Made by a program: the position numbers and the translations under genes. Shown here one piece after another: positions 7,970 to 42,720 of a stretch of 64,000 bases of DNA. Numbering within the stretch: the stretch's first letter is position 1; the number at the start of each line of letters is the position of its first letter. The notes beneath the pieces were generated by a model, which ran no database searches, was not told where the DNA came from, and worked only from the letters and a program-made list of their open reading frames with translations. This DNA is from a virus (lineage: Duplodnaviria; Caudoviricetes), in the IMG/VR virus record IMGVR_UViG_3300037067_027649, positions 1 to 64,000 of that record; one strand, given 5' to 3'.

Positions 7970-9343
7970 AGAAAACCACGAAATCTTTAGTTTCGTGTAT
8001 GAATTTCAAATATAATAAAAATATTTTAAAAATTTACAAAAAAGAATAAAAAAGAAAAATAGACTATAAATATTTTATATATATGATTATAAAAAAGTAT
8101 ATATAAAAATTGAAAACATATCAAATAAGAATATTTCCAACAATTAATCAGATAAACCAATTAAAAGAATTATCTGATATAAGAAAAGATATTTGGAATA
8201 AGCTTTTAGATATAGAAGAAAATGAATATAAAACAAACAAAAAAATATTTAATAATTTCGATTTAAATAATATGCTTCCAGATTTAAAAGAACAACATAT
8301 AAATTGGAAGAAATTAAATTCAAAAGCAATACAAACAATATCATCAGAATTATATGGTTCTTATCGTTCATTTTTTAATTTAATAAAAAAAGATAAAACA
8401 GCAAGACCACCAAAGAAAATTCAAGATAATATTTTTCATACTATAAATTGGAATCAATCTGGTTGGATAATTAAAGATGATAATAAAATTATAATTAACA
8501 AAATATCATTTTACTATAAATCAAATTTAAATATTAAAACATTAAATATAAAAGAAATAAGAATAAAATATAAAAATAATAAATGGTTGTGTGATTTAGT
8601 AGTTGATAATAAAATAAAATATGAAGATATTTTAAATATAAAAACAAAAATTTTAGCAATAGATTTAGGTTTAGAAAAATTATGTCATGGTATTGATAAT
8701 AAAGGAAATGAAGTTATAATAAAAAATAAATCTAAGAATATAAATAAATATTTTCAAAAACAGATAAAAAAGATACAACAAAAAAGAAGTAAAACAGTTA
8801 AAGGTTCAAAACGAAATATAAAATTAAAAAAAGTTTTAAATAAATGTTATCATAAAAAGAATAGTCAAATAAAACAAACTCTACATATTCAGAGTAAAAA
8901 ATTAGTGAATATGAACTATAATACAATTATAGTTGGTGATTTGAGTGTTAAAAAATTGATGAATTCAGAAGGAATAAATAAAAATAAAAAAGGTGTTAGA
9001 AAATCATTTCATCATTCTAATATTAATATGTTTTTACAATTTCTTTCTTATAAATGTCAAGCAAAAAATATTAACTTAACAAAAATAGATGAAAAATGGA
9101 CTACACAGTTAAATTGTTTGACAGGAAAAATTTTTGATAAAAAAATTGAATTAAAAGATAGAAAAGTTCAATTATCAAACACCATTATTATTGATCGTGA
9201 TTTAAATTCAGCCATAAATATTTTAAACAGATGGTTTGAAAATCACTTTGCTTCTATGAACGAGCCACTTGATGTTTCAAGTGTTGTTAAAAAGTTTAAC
9301 CTTTTTAATGAAACTACTAAATCTTTAGTTTAGTTGTAGTTCA
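7970..9343 (+). mobile_element. tnpB-only IS200/IS605-family element
   Basis: Left-end hairpin CACGAAA-TCTTTAG-TTTCGTG (7977-7997), right-end hairpin ACTAAA-TCTTTAG-TTTAGT (9316-9334) ending TTCA; preceded by TTGAA; no tnpA. Confidence 0.85.
8110..9333 (+). CDS. tnpB: TnpB RNA-guided nuclease
   Basis: N-terminal HTH (RIFPTINQ...L), RuvC-I LAIDLG, RuvC-II IVGDL with downstream DE, RuvC-III DRDLNSAINI. Confidence 0.92.
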   Translation: MKTYQIRIFPTINQINQLKELSDIRKDIWNKLLDIEENEYKTNKKIFNNFDLNNMLPDLKEQHINWKKLNSKAIQTISSELYGSYRSFFNLIKKDKTARPPKKIQDNIFHTINWNQSGWIIKDDNKIIINKISFYYKSNLNIKTLNIKEIRIKYKNNKWLCDLVVDNKIKYEDILNIKTKILAIDLGLEKLCHGIDNKGNEVIIKNKSKNINKYFQKQIKKIQQKRSKTVKGSKRNIKLKKVLNKCYHKKNSQIKQTLHIQSKKLVNMNYNTIIVGDLSVKKLMNSEGINKNKKGVRKSFHHSNINMFLQFLSYKCQAKNINLTKIDEKWTTQLNCLTGKIFDKKIELKDRKVQLSNTIIIDRDLNSAINILNRWFENHFASMNEPLDVSSVVKKFNLFNETTKSLV

Positions 9344-10088: not shown

Positions 10089-10436
10089 TCAAAACCCTAT
10101 TGGATAATCATTAAAATCAAATGTTAATTCAATATAATTATGATTTGTATTTATTAAATAATCATAAAAACCATTTTTACCTTTAAACTTATTTAATATA
10201 TTTTTTACTTTATTCCATTCATCTAAAGATATACCACCAATAGAATTTTCATTAAATGTTATTCTAACTTCATTTGTTTCTGGTTTAAAAGTAACTGTAT
10301 CTATACCTTCTCCAACAAAATCAAATATATCTCTTAAATTATCTTCAGATATAATTATTTCTTTATCTCCAATTTTGGATAATGATGTTAATTCTAAGAC
10401 TTGTTCGTTTAAAAAATCTTTAAAATTAGTTATCAT
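10089..10436 (-). CDS. Putative virion internal protein (capsid-targeting leader)
   Basis: Start moved to ATG 10436: MITNFKDFLNE. Confidence 0.65.
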   Translation of the reverse strand: MITNFKDFLNEQVLELTSLSKIGDKEIIISEDNLRDIFDFVGEGIDTVTFKPETNEVRITFNENSIGGISLDEWNKVKNILNKFKGKNGFYDYLINTNHNYIELTFDFNDYPIGF

Positions 10437-10437
10437 A

Positions 10438-10647
10438 TTAAACTCTTTCTTGTAACTTTTTAATAACTTCTTCAAGAACATACTGCGCTCTATATGGCAT
10501 TTCAGATGATATATTTCTTGTTCTATTATTTATAATAGCTGAGAATTCAGAAGCTAATTCTTCTGCTATTTCATCCAATTCTGGATATTTTGGATCATTA
10601 AGACTTTCTGATACGTTATATTCTGAATATTTTTTAATATTTTCCAT
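10438..10647 (-). CDS. Putative virion internal protein (capsid-targeting leader)
   Basis: MENIKKYSEYNVSES; TAATATATA upstream. Confidence 0.65.
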   Translation of the reverse strand: MENIKKYSEYNVSESLNDPKYPELDEIAEELASEFSAIINNRTRNISSEMPYRAQYVLEEVIKKLQERV

Positions 10648-14777: not shown

Positions 14778-15599
14778 ATGTTAAATTATAAATTATTTGA
14801 AAATTTACAAAAAGCAAAAAAAGTTTTATTTGATCATAAAATACCTGAATCAAATCCAGATTTCATTAAGCTGAAAGACTTATTAAAAAATAATATGGGT
14901 TATATTGGTAAATTCACTGAATGGATGGTTGTTGATCATGAACCTTTTGATAAAATAAAAGATACTTTTATAGAATTACAAAATAATCCAATAAATAAAC
15001 CATTTGATAGTTTTAAAAAACTTGAAGAATTATATGATTATATTCAATCATATACTGGTGATAAAAAAGTAAATCAAATGTTAAAAGCATTACCATCAGG
15101 CACACGTTCATTTGCCGAAAAAAGTAAAGAATTGAAAGATTTATTAAAAATGAACATAAAATACACTAAAGCTATTGTAGATTTATATTCAAAAAAAGGT
15201 GGTAGATATAAAGAAATAAAAAAATTAATAAGTGATACTATTGATTATATTACAAATATAAGTGGTGATTTTAATTTAGAAAATATGTTAGAAAAAATAA
15301 AAGATTATAATGTTGAAATTATTGAAGCTAATCCTGAAATTTTAATGATAAAAGTTAATGATTATAAAGCTGCTCATGATTTAGGTTCAATACATTGGTG
15401 TATAAGTACATCAAAATCAACATTTGAACAGTATGCAAATGCTTTTACTGTTCAATATTTTATTTATGATTTTACTAAAAAAATATCTGATATAAGTCAT
15501 TTAATTGGTGCTACATTAAATCCAAATGGTGAAATAGCATATGCACATTATGCTGATGATTCTAAAGTAGAAGATTTATCTATTTTTGATGAATTATAA
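14778..15599 (+). CDS. Putative internal protein with WCIS motif
   Basis: Leader MLNYKLFEN; HWCISTSKSTFEQY segment. Confidence 0.7.
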   Translation: MLNYKLFENLQKAKKVLFDHKIPESNPDFIKLKDLLKNNMGYIGKFTEWMVVDHEPFDKIKDTFIELQNNPINKPFDSFKKLEELYDYIQSYTGDKKVNQMLKALPSGTRSFAEKSKELKDLLKMNIKYTKAIVDLYSKKGGRYKEIKKLISDTIDYITNISGDFNLENMLEKIKDYNVEIIEANPEILMIKVNDYKAAHDLGSIHWCISTSKSTFEQYANAFTVQYFIYDFTKKISDISHLIGATLNPNGEIAYAHYADDSKVEDLSIFDEL

Positions 15600-15609
15600 A
15601 ACTAATATT

Positions 15610-16443
15610 ATGAAAACTTTTAAACAATTTATATATGAAGGAAAACAAGTTGGATTATTATATCATTTTACTAATAATGAATCTTTAAATAAAATTTTAG
15701 ATGAAAATAAAATGATTGGTTCTTTTATGTATGAAGAAAACGGTAAAGATATATATGGTGTTTCTACAACAAGAAATAAAAATTTAAATTATGATTTTAA
15801 AAAAAATAATATACGAATTACTCTTGATGGTGATAAATTATCTAATAATTATAAAATTAAACCAAAAGATTATTGGTATAGACAATATAACATTCCATTC
15901 AACCCACAAACAGTAGATGAAGATGAAGAAACTATATTAACACCAAAAGGATATATATATAATATTAAAAATTATATAATATCAATTGATAATATTAAAA
16001 ATCAAAATTACATTAATGAAAATTCTAATAATGATAAAATAATATATCATTTTACTGAAAATATAGATTCACTATTATCTATTTTAGATAGTAATTCGTT
16101 ACAATCTGGTTCTTTTAATGGTAGATTTGGAAGAGGATATGAAAATATATCTTTTACTTGGAATCCTAATTTATGGGATATTGAATATGTTGGAGATATT
16201 GAAGAAAGATATAAAATAAGAATATCTTTTGATTATACTAAAATGAGTAAAAAATGGGAATTTAAACCATTTGATTATGGAATACCAGAAGAACAAGAAG
16301 AAATTGTAGAAGAAGAAGAAATGTATGGAATTTTAGAATACATTACTGAAATTTTAATTAGTTCTAAAGAATCTAAAAAAGAAGTTCAAAATTTAAAAAT
16401 TCGTTATCCAAAATTAAATATAAAAATAGTTAAAAGAAAATAA
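15610..16443 (+). CDS. Putative internal protein with two tandem ADP-ribosyltransferase-like domains
   Basis: Start moved to 15610: MKTFKQFIYE; duplicated YHFT...IL...S(T/F)T(R/W)N...KP.DY...EE.I. Confidence 0.6.
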   Translation: MKTFKQFIYEGKQVGLLYHFTNNESLNKILDENKMIGSFMYEENGKDIYGVSTTRNKNLNYDFKKNNIRITLDGDKLSNNYKIKPKDYWYRQYNIPFNPQTVDEDEETILTPKGYIYNIKNYIISIDNIKNQNYINENSNNDKIIYHFTENIDSLLSILDSNSLQSGSFNGRFGRGYENISFTWNPNLWDIEYVGDIEERYKIRISFDYTKMSKKWEFKPFDYGIPEEQEEIVEEEEMYGILEYITEILISSKESKKEVQNLKIRYPKLNIKIVKRK

Positions 16444-16446
16444 TAA

Positions 16447-16629
16447 CTAATTTTCATTTACTTTAAATAGAACATCTATAATTAAATCAGTGTTAATTAA
16501 ATATCCATCTTTATCAAAATAAAGTGGTTTACCATTTTCAGAAAAAGTATTAGTTTTTCTAAATTTGTTATCACAATATTCTTTATATTTTATTTTTTGA
16601 CAAAATGTCAATTCTTTATATTTATTCAT
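16447..16629 (-). CDS. Hypothetical protein
   Basis: Start moved to ATG 16629 (MNKYKELTFCQK); codons upstream lie inside the inserted cassette. Confidence 0.65.
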   Translation of the reverse strand: MNKYKELTFCQKIKYKEYCDNKFRKTNTFSENGKPLYFDKDGYLINTDLIIDVLFKVNEN

Positions 16630-16636
16630 TATAATA

Positions 16637-16721
16637 AACGGCTGCGTGTATGAAACGTAGCCACGCACAACACTTGATATAAACCACAGACCTTAATTGG
16701 CTATGTTTTATACACGATGTT
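16637..16721. other. attC-like hairpin recombination site
   Basis: AAC-GGCTG-CGTGTATGAAACGTAGCC ...36 nt... GGCTATGTTTTATACACG-AT-GTT; 18-bp arms, 16/18 complementary plus two G-T pairs. Confidence 0.7.
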
Positions 16722-17361
16722 AGCACCAGTACGGGTTATTTAGTGGAATTTTAAATTTGGAATATTTATATATAAAGATAAAACGATGAGTAAAGAAATA
16801 CGACAAATGATAGACAAAGTGAAAAACTTTAAACAATTTGTGAATGAACAACAAGAAATTGAAACCAATATAAATAATAATTTTAGAAAATGGTTTAGTG
16901 GTAGTAAAGTTGTTTATAATGGAAAACCATTACCTGTTTATCATGGTTCTCATTCTGATTTTGAAGAATTTATGGGTGATACATATTTCACAGATGATTA
17001 TATGAATGCTGACGGATATGCTGGTGGTGAATATGTATATGAGGTTTTTATATCAATAAAAAATCCACTAATTATTGATGCAAAAGATAGAAAATGGGAT
17101 GATATTGAAACCGAAGATGGTGTAACATCAACACAAGGTATTGTTGGTATGGTAGATAGAAGTAAATATGATGGGGTTATTTTTATTAACGTTAAAGATA
17201 GTTGGATAGATGATGTTGACTATCAAGATGCTTCAACCATATATGTTACATTTAAACCTAACCAAATTAAATCTATTGATAATGATGGAACTTGGGATAT
17301 AAATGATAATAACATATATTCATAATGCTTAATCGAAGCACTTCCGTAGTATTGGTGCTAA
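16639..17361 (-). mobile_element. Integron-like gene cassette (723 bp) inserted at a G|TT site
   Basis: Minus strand: G|TTAGCACC ... GGTGCTAAC-hairpin-G|TT; deleting it restores a gene end FNCLL* with TAATG coupling. Confidence 0.75.
16786..17325 (+). CDS. ADP-ribosyltransferase-like protein (ART-PolyVal type) with capsid-targeting leader
   Basis: VKNFKQFVNE; PLPVYHGS...YFTDD...A..YA...VYEVFI...NP...YDGVIF. Confidence 0.7.
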   Translation: MSKEIRQMIDKVKNFKQFVNEQQEIETNINNNFRKWFSGSKVVYNGKPLPVYHGSHSDFEEFMGDTYFTDDYMNADGYAGGEYVYEVFISIKNPLIIDAKDRKWDDIETEDGVTSTQGIVGMVDRSKYDGVIFINVKDSWIDDVDYQDASTIYVTFKPNQIKSIDNDGTWDINDNNIYS

Positions 17362-17483
17362 CAATTAAATAACCAAATAAAAAATTTACATAGATACACA
17401 CCAATTGTAATTAAACCAACTACACTTAATAGTAATACAACAACCCAAAAATAATCGGAATCAGTGTTAATAAGTTTTTTCAT
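17358..17483 (-). CDS. 41-aa membrane peptide whose last codons were replaced by the cassette
   Basis: MKKLINTDSDYFWVVVLLLSVVGLITIGVYLCKFFIWLFNC*; TAG stop supplied by the cassette end. Confidence 0.6.
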   Translation of the reverse strand: MKKLINTDSDYFWVVVLLLSVVGLITIGVYLCKFFIWLFNC

Positions 17484-17487
17484 AATT

Positions 17488-18003
17488 TTAAAATAAAGAT
17501 GTATTTGTAGATTTAGAAAATCTATCAATAAGTTTTAAGATAATTTCATTATCTGAATTTATCATTAATTCATTTTTATCATCATATTGAATATCAACAT
17601 CTTTAATTTTATTTTCTATGATTGAAGATAAAATATTTTTATTGATTGTTGGTAAATTTTCAATTTTTGGGTAAGCAGCAATTATTTTAAAACAATTATG
17701 TTTTATCATAAAATGTGTATTACATCTATCAGCTTCATCATCATCTTGACATTTCATAATTTCAAAATCATTACCTTTATCTGTAACGTCACTTAAATCA
17801 TAAAGATAATAATCATCAGTTTTGATAATATCTTTTGATATTAAAATCATTTGATACGGTGTCCAATGAATATCATTACAACTTTCCATCATTTTGATGA
17901 TATTTTCATCTAAAATTATTATAGTATCTGTTAATTTTGATTTACAGATATCACCAACTTCTAAGTTCTTTTTAATAGGAACAAAATATAAATGTTTTTC
18001 CAT
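17488..18003 (-). CDS. Hypothetical phage protein
   Basis: 171-aa ORF. Confidence 0.75.
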   Translation of the reverse strand: MEKHLYFVPIKKNLEVGDICKSKLTDTIIILDENIIKMMESCNDIHWTPYQMILISKDIIKTDDYYLYDLSDVTDKGNDFEIMKCQDDDEADRCNTHFMIKHNCFKIIAAYPKIENLPTINKNILSSIIENKIKDVDIQYDDKNELMINSDNEIILKLIDRFSKSTNTSLF

Positions 18004-18004
18004 A

Positions 18005-18280
18005 TTATAAAATATTTTTTAATTTCATTCTTCTTTTTAAAGAAATATCATCAGTATCCCAAAATTCACAAGGAATTTTTTCATCTAAGATTTTAAAACA
18101 ATTTTTACTTATTTCACAATCATCATTATATCCAAATATTTCAGAACCACTATATGCATGATATTTACATGAATGACATAATTTTAATTTAGGATTAAAA
18201 TTACATATTTTTTCATGTTCTTTAATCTTTTCTTTAGTTCCAGTTTCACTACAAAAATCACATTTCCAAACTAATTTCAT
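18005..18280 (-). CDS. Zn-finger-like protein with C-terminal tag
   Basis: WKCDFC...HEKIC.FNP...CHSCKY; ends KRRMKLKNIL. Confidence 0.75.
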   Translation of the reverse strand: MKLVWKCDFCSETGTKEKIKEHEKICNFNPKLKLCHSCKYHAYSGSEIFGYNDDCEISKNCFKILDEKIPCEFWDTDDISLKRRMKLKNIL

Positions 18281-18570
18281 TTATTTAAAATTTTATTAAT
18301 TTTAAGTTTTCTTTCTAATTTATTATTTTGTGCTTCCCAAAATTTACAAGGTATATTATTATCCATTATTATACTTTTGATGAATTTAGATTTTGGACAT
18401 GTAAAAAGAACTTCACAATTTTCATTTTCAGAATAATAATGATATTTACAAGTTGGACATAATTTATTTTTCAAATTATATACACAACTATCTTCATGTT
18501 TAGCTACAATTCGTCTACTTTTATCACTAAAATTACAATATTTATATTTACATTTCCAAATTATTTCCAT
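18277..18570 (-). CDS. Zn-finger-like paralog with C-terminal tag
   Basis: Start moved to ATG 18570 (MEIIWKCKY); ends ERKLKINKILNK. Confidence 0.75.
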   Translation of the reverse strand: MEIIWKCKYKYCNFSDKSRRIVAKHEDSCVYNLKNKLCPTCKYHYYSENENCEVLFTCPKSKFIKSIIMDNNIPCKFWEAQNNKLERKLKINKILNK

Positions 18571-18584
18571 ATAATTATAAAATA

Positions 18585-18592
18585 CAAATATA
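18585..18592 (-). promoter_or_regulatory. Bacteroidota-type -7 element TATATTTG
   Basis: 15 nt upstream of ATG 18570. Confidence 0.55.
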
Positions 18593-18615
18593 ATAATTTT
18601 TATTATAAAAAACAA

Positions 18616-39192: not shown

Positions 39193-42100
39193 ATGCCAAT
39201 CAAGGATTTAGGTAAGTACAAAAGACCAGGTATTTTCATCGAAGAAATTGACAACTCATTAGTTGAATTACCTATTCAAGATGTGTTAATTAATTTAGTT
39301 CCTGGATTTTCAAAAAAGGGACCAGTTAATAATCCTGTATATATTGATAACACAGTCGATTTTGAAAAAATATTTGGAACATTAGATAAACAACTTGAAA
39401 ATAAAGGTTCGTTTTTTCACAGAACATCATTACAAATGTTAAAATCTGGCCCAATTTGGGCTTTGAATCTATTAAAAACTGATCCAACAAGAGATAAGTT
39501 AAATTGGAAATCTATTTCAGTATCAGCTATGTATAAAAATGGTACATTAAAACAAGATGCTTATGAAAGATTTTTTAATAGACAAGATTTTTGGACAAGA
39601 GATTCAGAATCTTTTATGGATTTAGTTAATGATCCAACACCTGAAAATGATAGATTATTACATTTAACTAATATGGGTGATAAAACAATCACTGTGTTTT
39701 TATTTAAATCTTCTATTACAGGTTTTGATGTAACAGCAGAAAATTGGTATGTTGGTTCAGTTAATGTACCTTCATATATTGATCCTAAAGATTATATTTC
39801 TGATTATATGGTAGATGTATTAATTTTAGCTGGTGATTGGACTGATTATAATACATTAAGTGTTGATACTACATGGAGTAGATATTTTACATCAACAGGT
39901 CTTATTAAAGAAAAAGTAGAAGATTTTGTTAATGAAAAAAATGTTACTGTTGTAGCAAATTATGATGCATGTTTAATACCTAAATTTAGAGATAAAGATG
40001 GTAGAGATATGTATATTAAAAATGTTATTAATAATGATACTGATAAAACTGGTTTATTCTGTGCATTTAACGAAGATGTTTTATATGCAGCAGATTTTCA
40101 AGAAGGTAAAATTGACTTACTTGGTAATACATTAGTTGGTTCAGAAATTGATGAAATAGAATTTTTATCATATAAAGAAACTTTAACAGAAGCTATCACA
40201 TATACACAAAAATATTTAGATAGTGCTGCTAACGTTTTTAGTTTTACACCTGATTTTGGTTCAGTTGATCAAAGAACAGGTACTTATACAAATTGGATAA
40301 CATATGGTTTAACATATACAAGTGTTTCTGGTCAAACTATATCTTTTTCTGTAGATTCGTCATCATCTTATTATGTATTAGGTGGTAATAAAATAACATT
40401 TGCTTTAACTGGAACATCAGCATATAATATAGTTCTTGATGATATAACAGATAATACAAGAAGAGTAGATCAATTATATTTAACAACAGATAATACAAAA
40501 ATTCAAGTGTTAAAAGGTTATGAATTACCTACATCTGGTGTATTTACATTACCAAATTATAGTGTTAATAATGAAGATACTATTCATTTAGGTTATGTTT
40601 TAGTTGAAAAAAATACTGGTGTTACGTCATTATTTTATACGGGTGTAACTGTTGATGATTCTGGTTATATGCCATTACAAACAGGTTCTACTGGTATACT
40701 TGGTATGAATATAGTTTCTGATTTAAATAAAATAACTATTGAATTTTATGAAACATATGGAACTAAAGATTTAACAGATTATAAATCATTAAGATATTAT
40801 AAAATATTTGATGAACTTGCTTTAAATATAGAAGGTGGTAAAGCTGTTATTATAAATAATTCAACACAAGATAAATATGAAATTGGTACAAATTATCAAA
40901 TTTCAGATTCCACAGCAACATCTAATTGTAAAATTAGTTTATATGTTGATAGTGCAGCTAATTATGATATAACAGGTTTGTTAATTTATTATGTAGATAA
41001 TGAGTTTTATTTAACTAATACAACTAATAGTATGAAAACTCAGAATAATGTTGGTACTACAACAATAGGTGGAAGAATTATGGGTACTGTTGCTAAATAT
41101 TCAACATTCTATCAAAATTTCTATGATGGTGTTATTAATTCATTAGATTATTTTGTTGTTGATAATGTTGATCCATCAGCAAGTGGTGCTACAAGAGTTT
41201 ATGTTAGACCTTTCTTAGATGCTAATGGTATTTTAACTGTTGATTTTAGAGGTAGTAAAGATCAAACAGCAGGTTTAATAACAACATCAACTTGGACAAG
41301 TGGATATGAATCAAAATTAATTATATATTCAGAGAGAAATAATTGGAAACAAACTCTTGAAATTGAATTACCTTTATCAACAACAGATTTTACTAAAATA
41401 ACACAAGTTAGTGTTGATAAAAATAGATATCCAGAAGTTAGTAAAGGTTCTTATTTAGAAGCTTATGTTGATGAAACTGATGTTGATGTGGAATCTGGTG
41501 AGAAAAAACCAAGAAGAATGACAAGAATTGTTAAAACTACTATTGATCCAGCTAATTCTAATTATAAAATTCTTTATACAGATGCACCAATAAAAGTAGA
41601 AGATAATGATCTTTCAGGTAATACAGATTATATAACAACTGTATATCCTTCAATTGATATTTATGTAACTGATTATAAAGGCGTATCATTAACACCATTT
41701 AAAATTCATATTGATTCAATTCCTAACGGTACTGAAACAAGACAAGCTGATATTTTAAGTGTAATAGGTGTTAATGCAACAAGTTCTTTAGCAAAAGGTT
41801 TAGTAAATAAAAATAAAATATCTTGGAGATATTTGGTTGATTCATTTGGTTTAGGTTTAATAGAAAATTCTAAACAAGAATTTATGTCACTTTGTGGTAA
41901 AAAATTAAATTGTTTAGGTTTCTTAAATATGCCATCTGCAAGAATGTTTAGAAAATCTAATAATCCAAGTTTTGTTAATGATGATGGTTCATTAAATTTA
42001 GAGTATGTTATGAATGGTGGAGATGAAAATAAAAATCCATCATTTTTATACAGTTTTGGTATTGGAGTTGGTGAAACATGTGTTGGTTATTTTTTCCCAT

Positions 42101-42720
42101 ATGTTAAGAACAATACTGATGGTGATGAAAAAATGGTTCCACCTGCAGCTTTTGTTGCAACAACATACATGCAGAAACATATATCAACTGTTGCTGGTAT
42201 ACAACCTTGGACTATTGCAGCAGGTTTACAAAACGGTGGTGTTTCTATAAGTGGAACTGAAATGGACTTTACTAATGAAGATTTAGAATTTTTATATCAA
42301 ATGAACGCTAATCCAATTGTTCGTGATATTAGAAGCGGTTACTATATCAATTCAGAAAGTACAGCACAAGTTAATCCAACAACATCATTAAGTTATATTC
42401 ATAGTAGAGAAGTTCTTATTGAACTTGAAAACGACCTTTATGATATGTTGTTAAGATATCAGTGGAGATTTAATACACCTTCTGTTCGTGCTGAAATTAA
42501 ATATAGAGCAGATAAAATCTGTAAAGAATATATGGATGCTGGTGCTTTGTATGATTTTAGAAACATTATGGATGAAACTAATAATACATCTGAAATTATT
42601 GACACACAAAAAGGTGTATTGGATACTTATGTTGAAATCGTTAAAGGTATGGGTATGATTATTAATAATATTACAATATTAGGTGTTGGTAAAATTTCTT
42701 CAAGTGGTTTTGCTGCTTAA
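39193..42720 (+). CDS. Contractile tail sheath protein
   Basis: RPGIFIEEID, PGFSKKGPVN, PWTIAAGLQNG, LYQMNANPIV, YIHSREVLI.LE, FNTPSVR, LDTYVEIVKG. Confidence 0.92.
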   Translation: MPIKDLGKYKRPGIFIEEIDNSLVELPIQDVLINLVPGFSKKGPVNNPVYIDNTVDFEKIFGTLDKQLENKGSFFHRTSLQMLKSGPIWALNLLKTDPTRDKLNWKSISVSAMYKNGTLKQDAYERFFNRQDFWTRDSESFMDLVNDPTPENDRLLHLTNMGDKTITVFLFKSSITGFDVTAENWYVGSVNVPSYIDPKDYISDYMVDVLILAGDWTDYNTLSVDTTWSRYFTSTGLIKEKVEDFVNEKNVTVVANYDACLIPKFRDKDGRDMYIKNVINNDTDKTGLFCAFNEDVLYAADFQEGKIDLLGNTLVGSEIDEIEFLSYKETLTEAITYTQKYLDSAANVFSFTPDFGSVDQRTGTYTNWITYGLTYTSVSGQTISFSVDSSSSYYVLGGNKITFALTGTSAYNIVLDDITDNTRRVDQLYLTTDNTKIQVLKGYELPTSGVFTLPNYSVNNEDTIHLGYVLVEKNTGVTSLFYTGVTVDDSGYMPLQTGSTGILGMNIVSDLNKITIEFYETYGTKDLTDYKSLRYYKIFDELALNIEGGKAVIINNSTQDKYEIGTNYQISDSTATSNCKISLYVDSAANYDITGLLIYYVDNEFYLTNTTNSMKTQNNVGTTTIGGRIMGTVAKYSTFYQNFYDGVINSLDYFVVDNVDPSASGATRVYVRPFLDANGILTVDFRGSKDQTAGLITTSTWTSGYESKLIIYSERNNWKQTLEIELPLSTTDFTKITQVSVDKNRYPEVSKGSYLEAYVDETDVDVESGEKKPRRMTRIVKTTIDPANSNYKILYTDAPIKVEDNDLSGNTDYITTVYPSIDIYVTDYKGVSLTPFKIHIDSIPNGTETRQADILSVIGVNATSSLAKGLVNKNKISWRYLVDSFGLGLIENSKQEFMSLCGKKLNCLGFLNMPSARMFRKSNNPSFVNDDGSLNLEYVMNGGDENKNPSFLYSFGIGVGETCVGYFFPYVKNNTDGDEKMVPPAAFVATTYMQKHISTVAGIQPWTIAAGLQNGGVSISGTEMDFTNEDLEFLYQMNANPIVRDIRSGYYINSESTAQVNPTTSLSYIHSREVLIELENDLYDMLLRYQWRFNTPSVRAEIKYRADKICKEYMDAGALYDFRNIMDETNNTSEIIDTQKGVLDTYVEIVKGMGMIINNITILGVGKISSSGFAA

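Follow-up and report, generated by a model that had tools for sequence, protein, structure and literature searches.

A solitary, hairpin-bounded ADP-ribosyltransferase cassette with integron-like features in a large tailed phage

Anatomy of the cassette and its insertion site

The stretch of DNA analysed here (hereafter "the window") comprises the first 64 kb of the IMG/VR virus contig IMGVR_UViG_3300037067_027649 (G000) from a groundwater sample, a record of 78,963 nt with 21% G+C that was judged to be ca. 11% complete. Its gene products include a tail sheath-like protein, a T4-type baseplate protein, a sigma factor, an NAD ligase, an Hsp70 and a TnpB-like protein, which marks the record as part of a very large tailed phage. 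At 16.4 to 18.6 kb all genes run on the minus strand save a single opposite gene (16786-17325) for a 179-aa ADP-ribosyltransferase (ART), which lies in a 723-nt unit (16640-17362, plus strand; 726 nt from 16637 when the AAC at its left end is included) that we refer to as the cassette. Read along the plus strand, it is composed of AAC, GGCTG, a hairpin, AT, a left inverted repeat (IR-L), ca. 50 nt ending in TATTTATATATAAAG, the gene, a box with TTAATCGAAGCAC and a right inverted repeat (IR-R). The features of the cassette and the two adjoining genes are as follows:

16637..16639, plus strand: left junction AAC, also present at the right end; the crossover maps to within these 3 nt, and similarity to other contigs as well as loose contig ends begin at 16637
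16640..16644, plus strand: 5' spacer GGCTG between AAC and the hairpin (GGTTG or GTTTT in aligned arrays)
16645..16716, plus strand: hairpin (H) with a 19-bp stem and a 34-nt loop, analogous to the L-box and loop of an attC site; 94 bits with the covariance model R1 (see below)
16719..16732, plus strand: IR-L, GTTAGCACCAGTAC, made up of a GTTA core, the 5-nt variable block GCACC and AGTAC; pairs with IR-R
16743..16785, plus strand: conserved, promoter-like upstream region that includes TATTTATATATA at 16763-16774 and may serve as a promoter
16786..17325, plus strand: gene for a 179-aa ART-PolyVal ADP-ribosyltransferase (Pfam PF18760)
16786..16848, plus strand: N-terminal leader of 21 aa with the end ..NFKQFVNE, resembling the T4 capsid-targeting sequence and possibly acting like it
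17324..17348, plus strand: conserved 3' box (..TTAATCGAAGCAC..GTA) before IR-R, found ahead of many IR-R copies
17349..17362, plus strand: IR-R, GTATTGGTGCTAAC, ending in the right-junction AAC; pairs with IR-L
16447..16629, minus strand: downstream gene of the host phage, 60 aa, whose ATG would overlap the stop codon of the peptide gene (TAATG) in the reconstructed empty site
17358..17483, minus strand: interrupted gene of the host phage encoding a membrane peptide of 41 aa; according to this reconstruction, the insertion would have displaced its stop and the two codons before it

The arms of H (16645-16663 and 16698-16716) are 19 nt long with Watson-Crick pairs at 17 of 19 positions, the exceptions being G.T pairs (on the plus strand) at stem positions 8 and 13, and H is separated from IR-L by 2 nt (AT) compared to 5 nt (GGCTG) on its 5' side. 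Taken together, the inverted repeats extend over 15 nt with 14 of them complementary (16718-16732 and 17349-17363). When the window is searched for inverted repeats of this quality (15 nt or longer with 14 or more matches, 6 or more G/C and arms no more than 1 kb apart), the cassette pair and one other place come up, compared to none in six block shuffles. The other place is a 19-nt inverted repeat (18/19; 40904-40922 and 41479-41497, 556 nt apart) inside the gene for the 1175-aa sheath-like protein (39193-42720). Across the whole 78,963-nt record H is the sole hairpin of its class, and with 30% G+C the cassette falls into the top 2% of segments of a genome that averages 21.2 +/- 3.6%. A first-pass annotation made from the letters alone had read this locus as an integrated cassette with AAC/GTT junctions, and all sequence features it had named are present where it had put them, including the hairpin (described there with 18-bp arms), inverted repeats at 16718 and 17363 and the asymmetric spacers of 2 and 5 nt.

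The right-junction AAC (17360-17362) matches the left one, and AAC/GTT is the only sequence that the target in the window and the cassette ends have in common, so that homologous recombination cannot explain the insertion. On its left flank the cassette lies 10 nt from the start codon of the resident gene and on its right flank within the end of the membrane-peptide gene, which in its truncated form takes a TAG stop (17358-17360, minus strand) from IR-R. Deletion of 16639-17361 leaves ...AAT TGT TTA TTA TAA TG on the minus strand, i.e., an NCLL* end and a TAATG that overlaps the start codon at 16629. The arithmetic of this reconstruction, first proposed in the earlier annotation, is correct, and it seems plausible that excision would restore the original peptide end together with the stop/start overlap. 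The limits of the cassette were drawn again by comparison with other contigs, in which every similarity begins at 16637 and stops at 17362, in agreement with the earlier proposal within the 3-nt ambiguity of AAC. It is also at these two positions that loose ends of metagenome contigs begin, and the word depth over the cassette ends in these contigs is ca. 10 to 20 times that of the flanks. H is 85% to 92% identical to hairpins in other contigs, the upstream region (16743..16785) shares 78% to 90% identity with upstream regions of leader-bearing cassettes elsewhere, and 17322-17362 is 95% to 97% identical to L024, L034, L071 and L075, with the exact 17-mer GTAGTATTGGTGCTAAC of the right end recurring in at least 100 IMG/VR stretches. 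No DNA match to the region or to a related cassette end was found among 50,697 phage records.

A single gene flanked by terminal inverted repeats could also represent a small transposon or miniature inverted-repeat transposable element, with 14- to 15-nt GTTA...TAAC inverted ends that would bind a transposase, or a single-strand element of the IS200/IS605 type inserted 3' of a short word. IS608-type elements insert just 3' of a short word without any longer duplication, which the AAC insertion of the window resembles, and a TnpB gene is found at 8110-9333. However, the Y1 (HUH) transposase PF01797 is absent from G000 and from five records with cassette arrays, and the repeats differ between cassettes yet stay complementary, which fits pairing and not the recognition of fixed ends by a protein. 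The hairpin lies outside the repeats and moved together with them (the similarity begins at 16637 rather than 16719), which excludes a transposon with inverted ends, and we regard this group of explanations as extremely improbable.

Related cassettes in co-oriented arrays

Homologs of the ART protein with 66% to 75% identity are encoded in IMG/VR contigs of 29 to 270 kb, and several of these genes sit inside cassettes of the same type (L001, L002/L003, L008, L010 and L011 among the carriers); in L001, four or more such units follow each other on the same strand. We aligned 20 hairpin sites from eight loci in a single frame and found a common layout of ..NNNNNTAAC, a 4- to 5-nt spacer, a 20-bp stem, a loop of ca. 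34 nt, the returning stem, 1 to 2 nt and GTTA-NNNNN-AGTAC... Compensatory changes are seen in 16 of the 20 stem pairs while one G.U pair and the TAAC...GTTA cores around the co-varying stem are invariant in all 20 sequences. A covariance model built from this alignment (R1) detects 8 to 15 clustered and co-oriented sites in each of five related records and exactly one in the record of the window. Hundreds of other hairpin-bounded cassettes exist, as would be demanded of the integron-like reading that the first-pass annotation had put forward.

The repeats reveal what belongs to a unit. The variable block of a given IR-L pairs with that of the IR-R in front of the following hairpin at 9 or more of 10 positions in 23 of 37 cases, with adjacent pairs at background, and in an independent set of arrays found via their recombinase gene (see below) this own-end pairing was observed for 119 of 201 cassettes compared to 8 of 277 adjacent IR-R copies and 2.6% of random pairs. 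The unit is therefore H, IR-L, cargo and IR-R, cut between AAC and the next hairpin. IR-L and IR-R would come into contact only once a unit has been circularised, and the outer stem that they would then form also holds a fixed G.T pair (..AGTAC against GTATT..). In 285 of 309 sites the more stable fold is that of the sense strand, a comparison that is biased since the sites had been detected on that strand.

Fixed G.U pairs on the coding-sense strand could also point to an element working at the level of RNA, i.e., a polycistronic array transcript in which an IR-L/IR-R stem encloses each frame and H is a hairpin for processing or stability (e.g., an RNase III site), with mobility being incidental. 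Co-variation, fixed G.U pairs and the more stable sense strand (with the caveat just given) would then reflect RNA function, and many small cassettes are too short for a promoter of their own so that H and the repeats must be transcribed. No RNA data set is listed among the sequencing runs that contain the sequence. Nevertheless, the invariant TAAC/GTTA cores, the exact AAC breakpoints and the linkage to a recombinase would all be left unexplained, and the promoter-like region of leader-bearing cassettes lies downstream of IR-L so that their own transcript would miss one arm. The hairpin has no match to any Rfam family, and no terminator-like site is present in 16300-17700 with no T run following H, which also speaks against the hairpin being an independent terminator or a known noncoding RNA. 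We judge an RNA-level element as the full explanation to be very unlikely, though an RNA role of hairpin and repeats may coexist with their role in DNA.

Several peculiarities of individual arrays are worth recording. One apparently empty cassette (L002:5372-5446) consists of IR-L GTTATACACAGTTGC, ca. 45 nt and the matching IR-R GCAATTGTGTATAAC with no reading frame in between. The leader-bearing cassettes in L001, L002, L008, L010 and L011 possess additional long-range complementary boxes, CTTTTTGTTTTATTTTT upstream and AAAAATAAAACAAAAAG downstream, as well as a directly repeated GTGGGTGG box; the complementary boxes, which are absent from the cassette in the window, would extend the composite hairpin to ca. 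90 bp per arm. We rejected L039 as a second solitary copy, given that it holds a partial cassette without H and IR-L upstream (L039:4432-4834) in which a leader-bearing gene, whose frame runs through the 3' box, is followed by that box and an IR-R identical to that of the window over 33 nt. A nested insertion considered for L012 was dropped because neighboring cassettes may merely share a common variable block. In an exact scan of prokaryote genomes, the commonest hairpin motif was found in 18 contigs of metagenome-assembled genomes (MAGs; L205-L222) with scattered phylum labels, 6 of 18 being Bacteroidota, and most likely these matches reflect phage contigs mis-binned into MAGs.

A Xer-type recombinase adjoins the arrays

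Two of the five array-bearing records encode a tyrosine recombinase straight after the last cassette and on the same strand, and in L011, L016/L057, L100 and L102 this gene is found 47 to 50 nt past the last AAC. Two examples are the following:

L011:3466-4263: recombinase gene of a platform, next to a cassette array
L016:8272-9072: recombinase gene of a second platform

Relatives of this recombinase are encoded in 361 IMG/VR contigs. Around the best 79 of these loci we detected 297 R1 sites, nearly all of them upstream of and co-oriented with the recombinase gene, and a scan for TAAC-hairpin-GTTA gave 0.92 sites per kb on the same strand upstream compared to 0.03 downstream (0.05 and 0.01, respectively, on the other strand). 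A same-strand site upstream of the recombinase is found in 50 of the 55 loci for which 2 kb or more of upstream sequence are available. Between array and gene, a junction reminiscent of attI (..ATAAC|TAnnATATAT..) is conserved 45 to 70 nt before the recombinase start in these relatives and absent from the record of the window. In L133-L165 (e.g., L139, L142 and L151) this junction is partly palindromic (ATATAAC / ATTATAT).

The recombinase of 265 aa has a complete set of catalytic residues (R-K-H-R-H-Y) and aligns end to end with archaeal (Pyrococcus) XerA (4a8e). With Vibrio IntIA (VchIntIA, 2a3v) the alignment falls into two pieces, with 31 residues in the phage enzyme compared to 79 in IntI, and NCBIfam models of integron integrases stay below their cut-offs (TIGR02249, 151 bits versus a cut-off of 265). 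Judging from these comparisons, the array-linked recombinase is of Xer type and lacks the insertion specific to IntI. The search for similar hairpins and a tyrosine recombinase suggested by the first-pass annotation thus yielded nothing further in the record of the window and a tyrosine recombinase beside arrays in its relatives, though one resembling Xer and not IntI. The nearest cultured relatives are "integrases" of Polaribacter and Cellulophaga phages with 36% to 38% identity. Polaribacter phages Freya_1 to Freya_10 (MT732463-MT732472) differ in genome length by up to 4.9 kb, and the two records that we read, Freya_1 and Freya_10, carry AAC|ACCCCTATAAC.. before an integrase of 36% identity, with ca. 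4.1 kb more ahead of this gene in Freya_10. R1 does not recognise the sites of these two phages.

Exact gain and loss of cassettes

Between contigs L131 and L132, which stem from different samples, two flanking stretches (1,945 and 726 nt) match with 100% identity and a third (6,870 nt) with 99.2%. Two whole cassettes of 392 nt and 762 nt are each present in only one of the contigs, cut exactly at TAAC|G in both cases. The former (L131:3617-4008) is missing from L132 at 2688, and the latter (L132:3409-4170) is missing from L131 at 4728 and sits at the recombinase-proximal junction, where gain of a cassette is the behavior expected of an attI-like entry site. The breakpoints at TAAC|G in this pair and at the pair of AAC in the window are resolved to 3 to 6 nt. 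The empty alleles that the first-pass annotation had advised to look for were therefore found, exact at AAC and with flanks of 99% to 100% identity, at positions within arrays and not for the insertion in the window.

In principle, such differences could also arise from shuffling of the kind described for promoter early stem-loop (PeSL) elements, in which the cassette ends would be regulatory motifs that serve general homologous or illegitimate recombination and the neighboring recombinase an ordinary integrase without any role. PeSLs are promoter-plus-hairpin motifs flanking accessory genes in hyperplastic regions of large myoviruses, where they allow modular shuffling much like that seen here, and the motifs of T4-type phages are a known precedent that also yields mini-circles (PMC2839356, PMC4122927). 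The phages studied here have T4-like baseplate, sheath and protease genes, and ends and cargo are indeed mosaic: the same ART cargo occurs with different types of inverted repeat and H, the same ends occur with other cargo, and joints from 16776/8 to 17331 in metagenome contigs document this mosaicism. On the other hand, PeSLs rely on homologous recombination and terminator hairpins with neither a dedicated recombinase nor a fixed AAC crossover. The cassette has no T run after H and only 3 nt (AAC) in common with its target, near-identical contigs differ by cassettes cut exactly at TAAC|G, and a regulatory motif needs no co-variation of IR-L and IR-R across hundreds of bases. Likewise, the recombinase gene lies at a fixed distance from the arrays and on a fixed strand, and sites are enriched 30-fold on its upstream side. 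We therefore find PeSL-like shuffling unlikely to account for the cassettes, though homologous exchange of this type probably adds to the mosaicism of their ends and cargo.

Cargo and leader

The gene in the cassette, described as ART-like in the first-pass annotation, matches Pfam PF18760 with an E value of 8e-19 over residues 45-167 (69.2 bits compared to a gathering cut-off of 31.2), and the His of the YHGS motif as well as other family positions are invariant in eight homologs. Its product is thus confirmed by profile as an ART-PolyVal ADP-ribosyltransferase, from which we infer its activity and the existence of a target. At least 27 distinct cargo genes in related arrays begin with nearly the same leader, M(E/K)LRKFIATTIREYLNE, and the similarity among them ends directly after LNE (..REYLNE). 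Out of ten leader-bearing cargos that were tested, five match the ART-PolyVal profile and one that of a GNAT-type acetyltransferase. The proposal of shuffled, injected effectors fits the sharing of one leader by diverse cargo with many ART-PolyVal proteins among it, while the term "virion-targeted" applies by analogy only.

The analogy is with phage T4, in which internal proteins reach the prohead core by means of a leader that the gp21 protease then cleaves off after L/I-X-E; ten residues suffice for head loading, also for Alt (PMC9026906, PMC3012670). Like the T4 internal proteins and Alt, the cassettes encode diverse effectors, including ADP-ribosyltransferases, that have only a short N-terminal leader with an x-E end in common (PMC9026906, PMC3012670). 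Unlike in T4, the leader is 17 to 21 aa long and ends in V-N-E in the window. Genes for a protease of the gp21 family (Peptidase_S77) are present in two related records, G003 and G005. By this analogy, the leader may well target the ART to the virion.

While the mature part of the ART in the window is 72% to 77% identical to the copies in arrays, its leader has diverged to ..KVKNFKQFVNE and resembles leaders of the same phage, i.e., MITNFKDFLNE at 10089-10481 (minus strand) and MKTFKQFIYE of a neighboring HYD1-type ART. Further leader-like N-termini (..NFKDFLNE, ..YKDYIKE and ..YNDFLVE) were seen at 10089-10481 (minus strand) in the window and at 66061-66582 and 73361-74194 (both minus strand) in G000. 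These similarities suggest that the same phage holds a resident family of leader-tagged proteins, and the divergence of the leader in the window fits, by analogy to T4, a need to match the head-assembly machinery of the recipient.

Genes around the cassette

Directly left of the cassette are two plus-strand genes without hairpin or repeat ends (15586-16443 and 14778-15599). The former matches Tox-ART-HYD1 (E value 4e-6) and has an inner Met start with MKTFKQFIYE, resembling a T4 capsid-targeting leader. The cassette and these two neighbors form a small island of ART-type genes opposing the surrounding operon. Just upstream of the interrupted operon, two adjacent minus-strand paralogs (18005-18280 and 18277-18615) encode small Cys-rich proteins of 91 and 112 aa with repeated CxxC. 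Farther away, the TnpB/IS605 OrfB-like gene (8110-9333, plus strand) encodes OrfB_IS605, Cas12f1-like TNB and HTH domains. No tRNA was found at the locus. Upstream of the ART gene, TTATATATA is found at 16766-16774, exactly where the first-pass annotation had placed a "late-type" motif, and it has also five copies per strand in the 79 kb; no motif is clearly shared at structural genes, and sigma-70-like matches occur at chance level. We rejected it as a late-type promoter on the grounds of these copies and of the lack of a clearly shared motif at structural genes, leaving "late-type" as an analogy.

Comparison with integrons and related systems

The arrays resemble integrons, especially sedentary chromosomal ones, in many respects. 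Single-gene cassettes lie in one orientation, and an imperfect hairpin with AAC/GTT cores marks the boundary of each. This core is where the crossover falls, and a cassette carries the far half of its own site. The array adjoins a tyrosine recombinase gene pointing away from it (with the site written R''->R') that has an entry site beside it, the newest cassette is found next to the recombinase (L132), and the strand that folds better is equivalent to the bottom strand of attC. The site in the window shares the architecture of attC (AAC, 5 nt, stem, 2 nt, GTTA), and an array next to an integrase gene with attI is found in its relatives only. As already noted in the first-pass annotation, however, it does not match canonical attC: the cores are GTTAGCA or GTTATAT compared to GTTRRRY (RYYYAAC/GTTRRRY), and the stem shows no bulged bases but fixed G.T pairs in the phage sites where attC has extrahelical bases. 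Furthermore, the 265-aa phage enzyme is of Xer type without the IntI insertion of ca. 48 residues, the paired R-box of the phage cassettes measures 14 to 16 bp with a variable block, and their frames run towards the recombinase whereas frames in integrons point away from intI. At least the leader class carries an upstream expression region of its own, unlike the mostly promoterless cassettes of integrons that are read from the Pc promoter, and the hosts are large phages.

The only H site of G000 compared to arrays in its relatives makes the copy in the window a solitary insertion at a non-array AAC site that is comparable to single attC sites lacking an integron integrase (SALIN) and their attG target sites, i.e., cassette insertions that IntI brings about in the chromosomes of bacteria (Loot et al., bioRxiv 10.1101/2022.09.11.507474). 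In both cases one complete cassette lies outside any array at a short word of the G-W-T type (here GTT/AAC) with no att site in the target, and the insertion can interrupt or uncouple resident genes. They differ in the target, which is a phage genome here, and in the enzyme, which is presumably Xer-like rather than IntI. Clusters of attC-type sites with cassettes have been described in virulent phages, including a Polaribacter phage, as a route for the acquisition of anti-defense genes (Qi et al. 2023, PMC9892861). That study employed the attC models of IntegronFinder and assays with IntI1 and reported clusters of attC sites lacking an integron integrase (CALINs). A dedicated Xer-type recombinase, split long repeats or leader-tagged cargo as seen here were not described there.

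A probable phage-borne gene-capture system

Based on these findings, we consider it likely that phages carry an integron-like system for gene capture and that 16640-17362 represents one complete cassette of it. Upon excision as a circle, ...GGTGCTAAC would be joined to GGCTGCGTGTATG..., bringing together IR-R, H and IR-L in a long imperfect hairpin with an AAC/GTT core as the analog of attC. The small Xer-type tyrosine recombinase would exchange strands at this core, with the single-stranded, folded site as its probable substrate. In the platform phages, cassettes would accumulate ahead of the recombinase gene on a single strand, with new ones entering at the attI-like site (..ATAAC|TAnnATATAT..) beside it. 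The copy in the window would have inserted at a secondary AAC site within an operon of an unrelated and much more AT-rich large phage, using a recombinase encoded in the unsequenced part of the genome or provided in trans by a co-infecting phage. It would have cut two codons from the small membrane-peptide gene and uncoupled the next gene while bringing in its own upstream expression region and an ADP-ribosyltransferase. The leader probably sends the ART into the prohead, where it would be cleaved after ..NE, for delivery together with the DNA in the manner of T4 Alt and internal proteins.

A number of observations weigh against this interpretation. First, the recombinase lacks the IntI insertion that is thought to be necessary for recombining folded attC sites, and H carries no extrahelical bases. 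Second, neither a recombinase nor, in the R1 search, a second H site is present in the whole record (ca. 11% of the genome), extending the earlier remark that no integrase is visible in the window. Third, H types and variable blocks of the repeats occur in differing combinations, which requires additional homologous exchange or drift, and those small cassettes that offer no space for a promoter imply read-through, in which case H and the repeats would also be part of RNA and could act there. Fourth, the leader in the window ends in V-N-E and not L/I-X-E, and no prohead protease gene is found in the 79-kb fragment. Finally, an exact search of IMG/VR for the reconstructed empty junction gave one match (L021) with unrelated flanks and thus no empty allele, and the sole other assembly with the flanking gene (an ENA contig of 1.2 kb) shows the same occupied junction. 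For the 171-aa protein encoded in the flank, a set of 5.8 billion proteins contains no more than one identical copy and one relative with 50% identity, the latter on a contig that is not syntenic. Neither a joint from 16639 to 17362 nor the circle junction is listed among assembled metagenome contigs, which break at repeats and drop rare variants so that missing joints there say little.

Implications for the biology of large phages

Phage attC sites and integrase-less clusters have already been published (PMC9892861), and we found no paper in the literature on a Xer-type platform of this kind. A broader picture, which we hold tentatively and with somewhat less than even confidence, is that of a Xer-driven analog of the integron, common to large phages from anoxic and freshwater habitats, through which ready-to-use injected effectors are exchanged. 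Each cassette would come equipped with an expression region and a capsid-targeting leader, and any cargo, such as the diversifying set of ADP-ribosyltransferases seen here, would be packaged and delivered at once. Cassettes would also jump in trans to plain AAC sites of unrelated phages without a platform, as in the window, after which the leader drifts to the type of the recipient.

The solitary copy in the window shows the spread of cassettes past their platforms into unrelated genomes, and the system offers a concrete mechanism for the fast turnover of accessory and counter-defense genes in large phages. The leader that the cargos have in common points to a natural, modular way of loading proteins into virions, which could be of use for phage engineering in laboratory strains. 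In these phages, a plain Xer-type enzyme appears to run the equivalent of an integron. Cassette capture via folded hairpins would consequently extend beyond IntI integrases and beyond bacteria, which bears on the origin of integrons.

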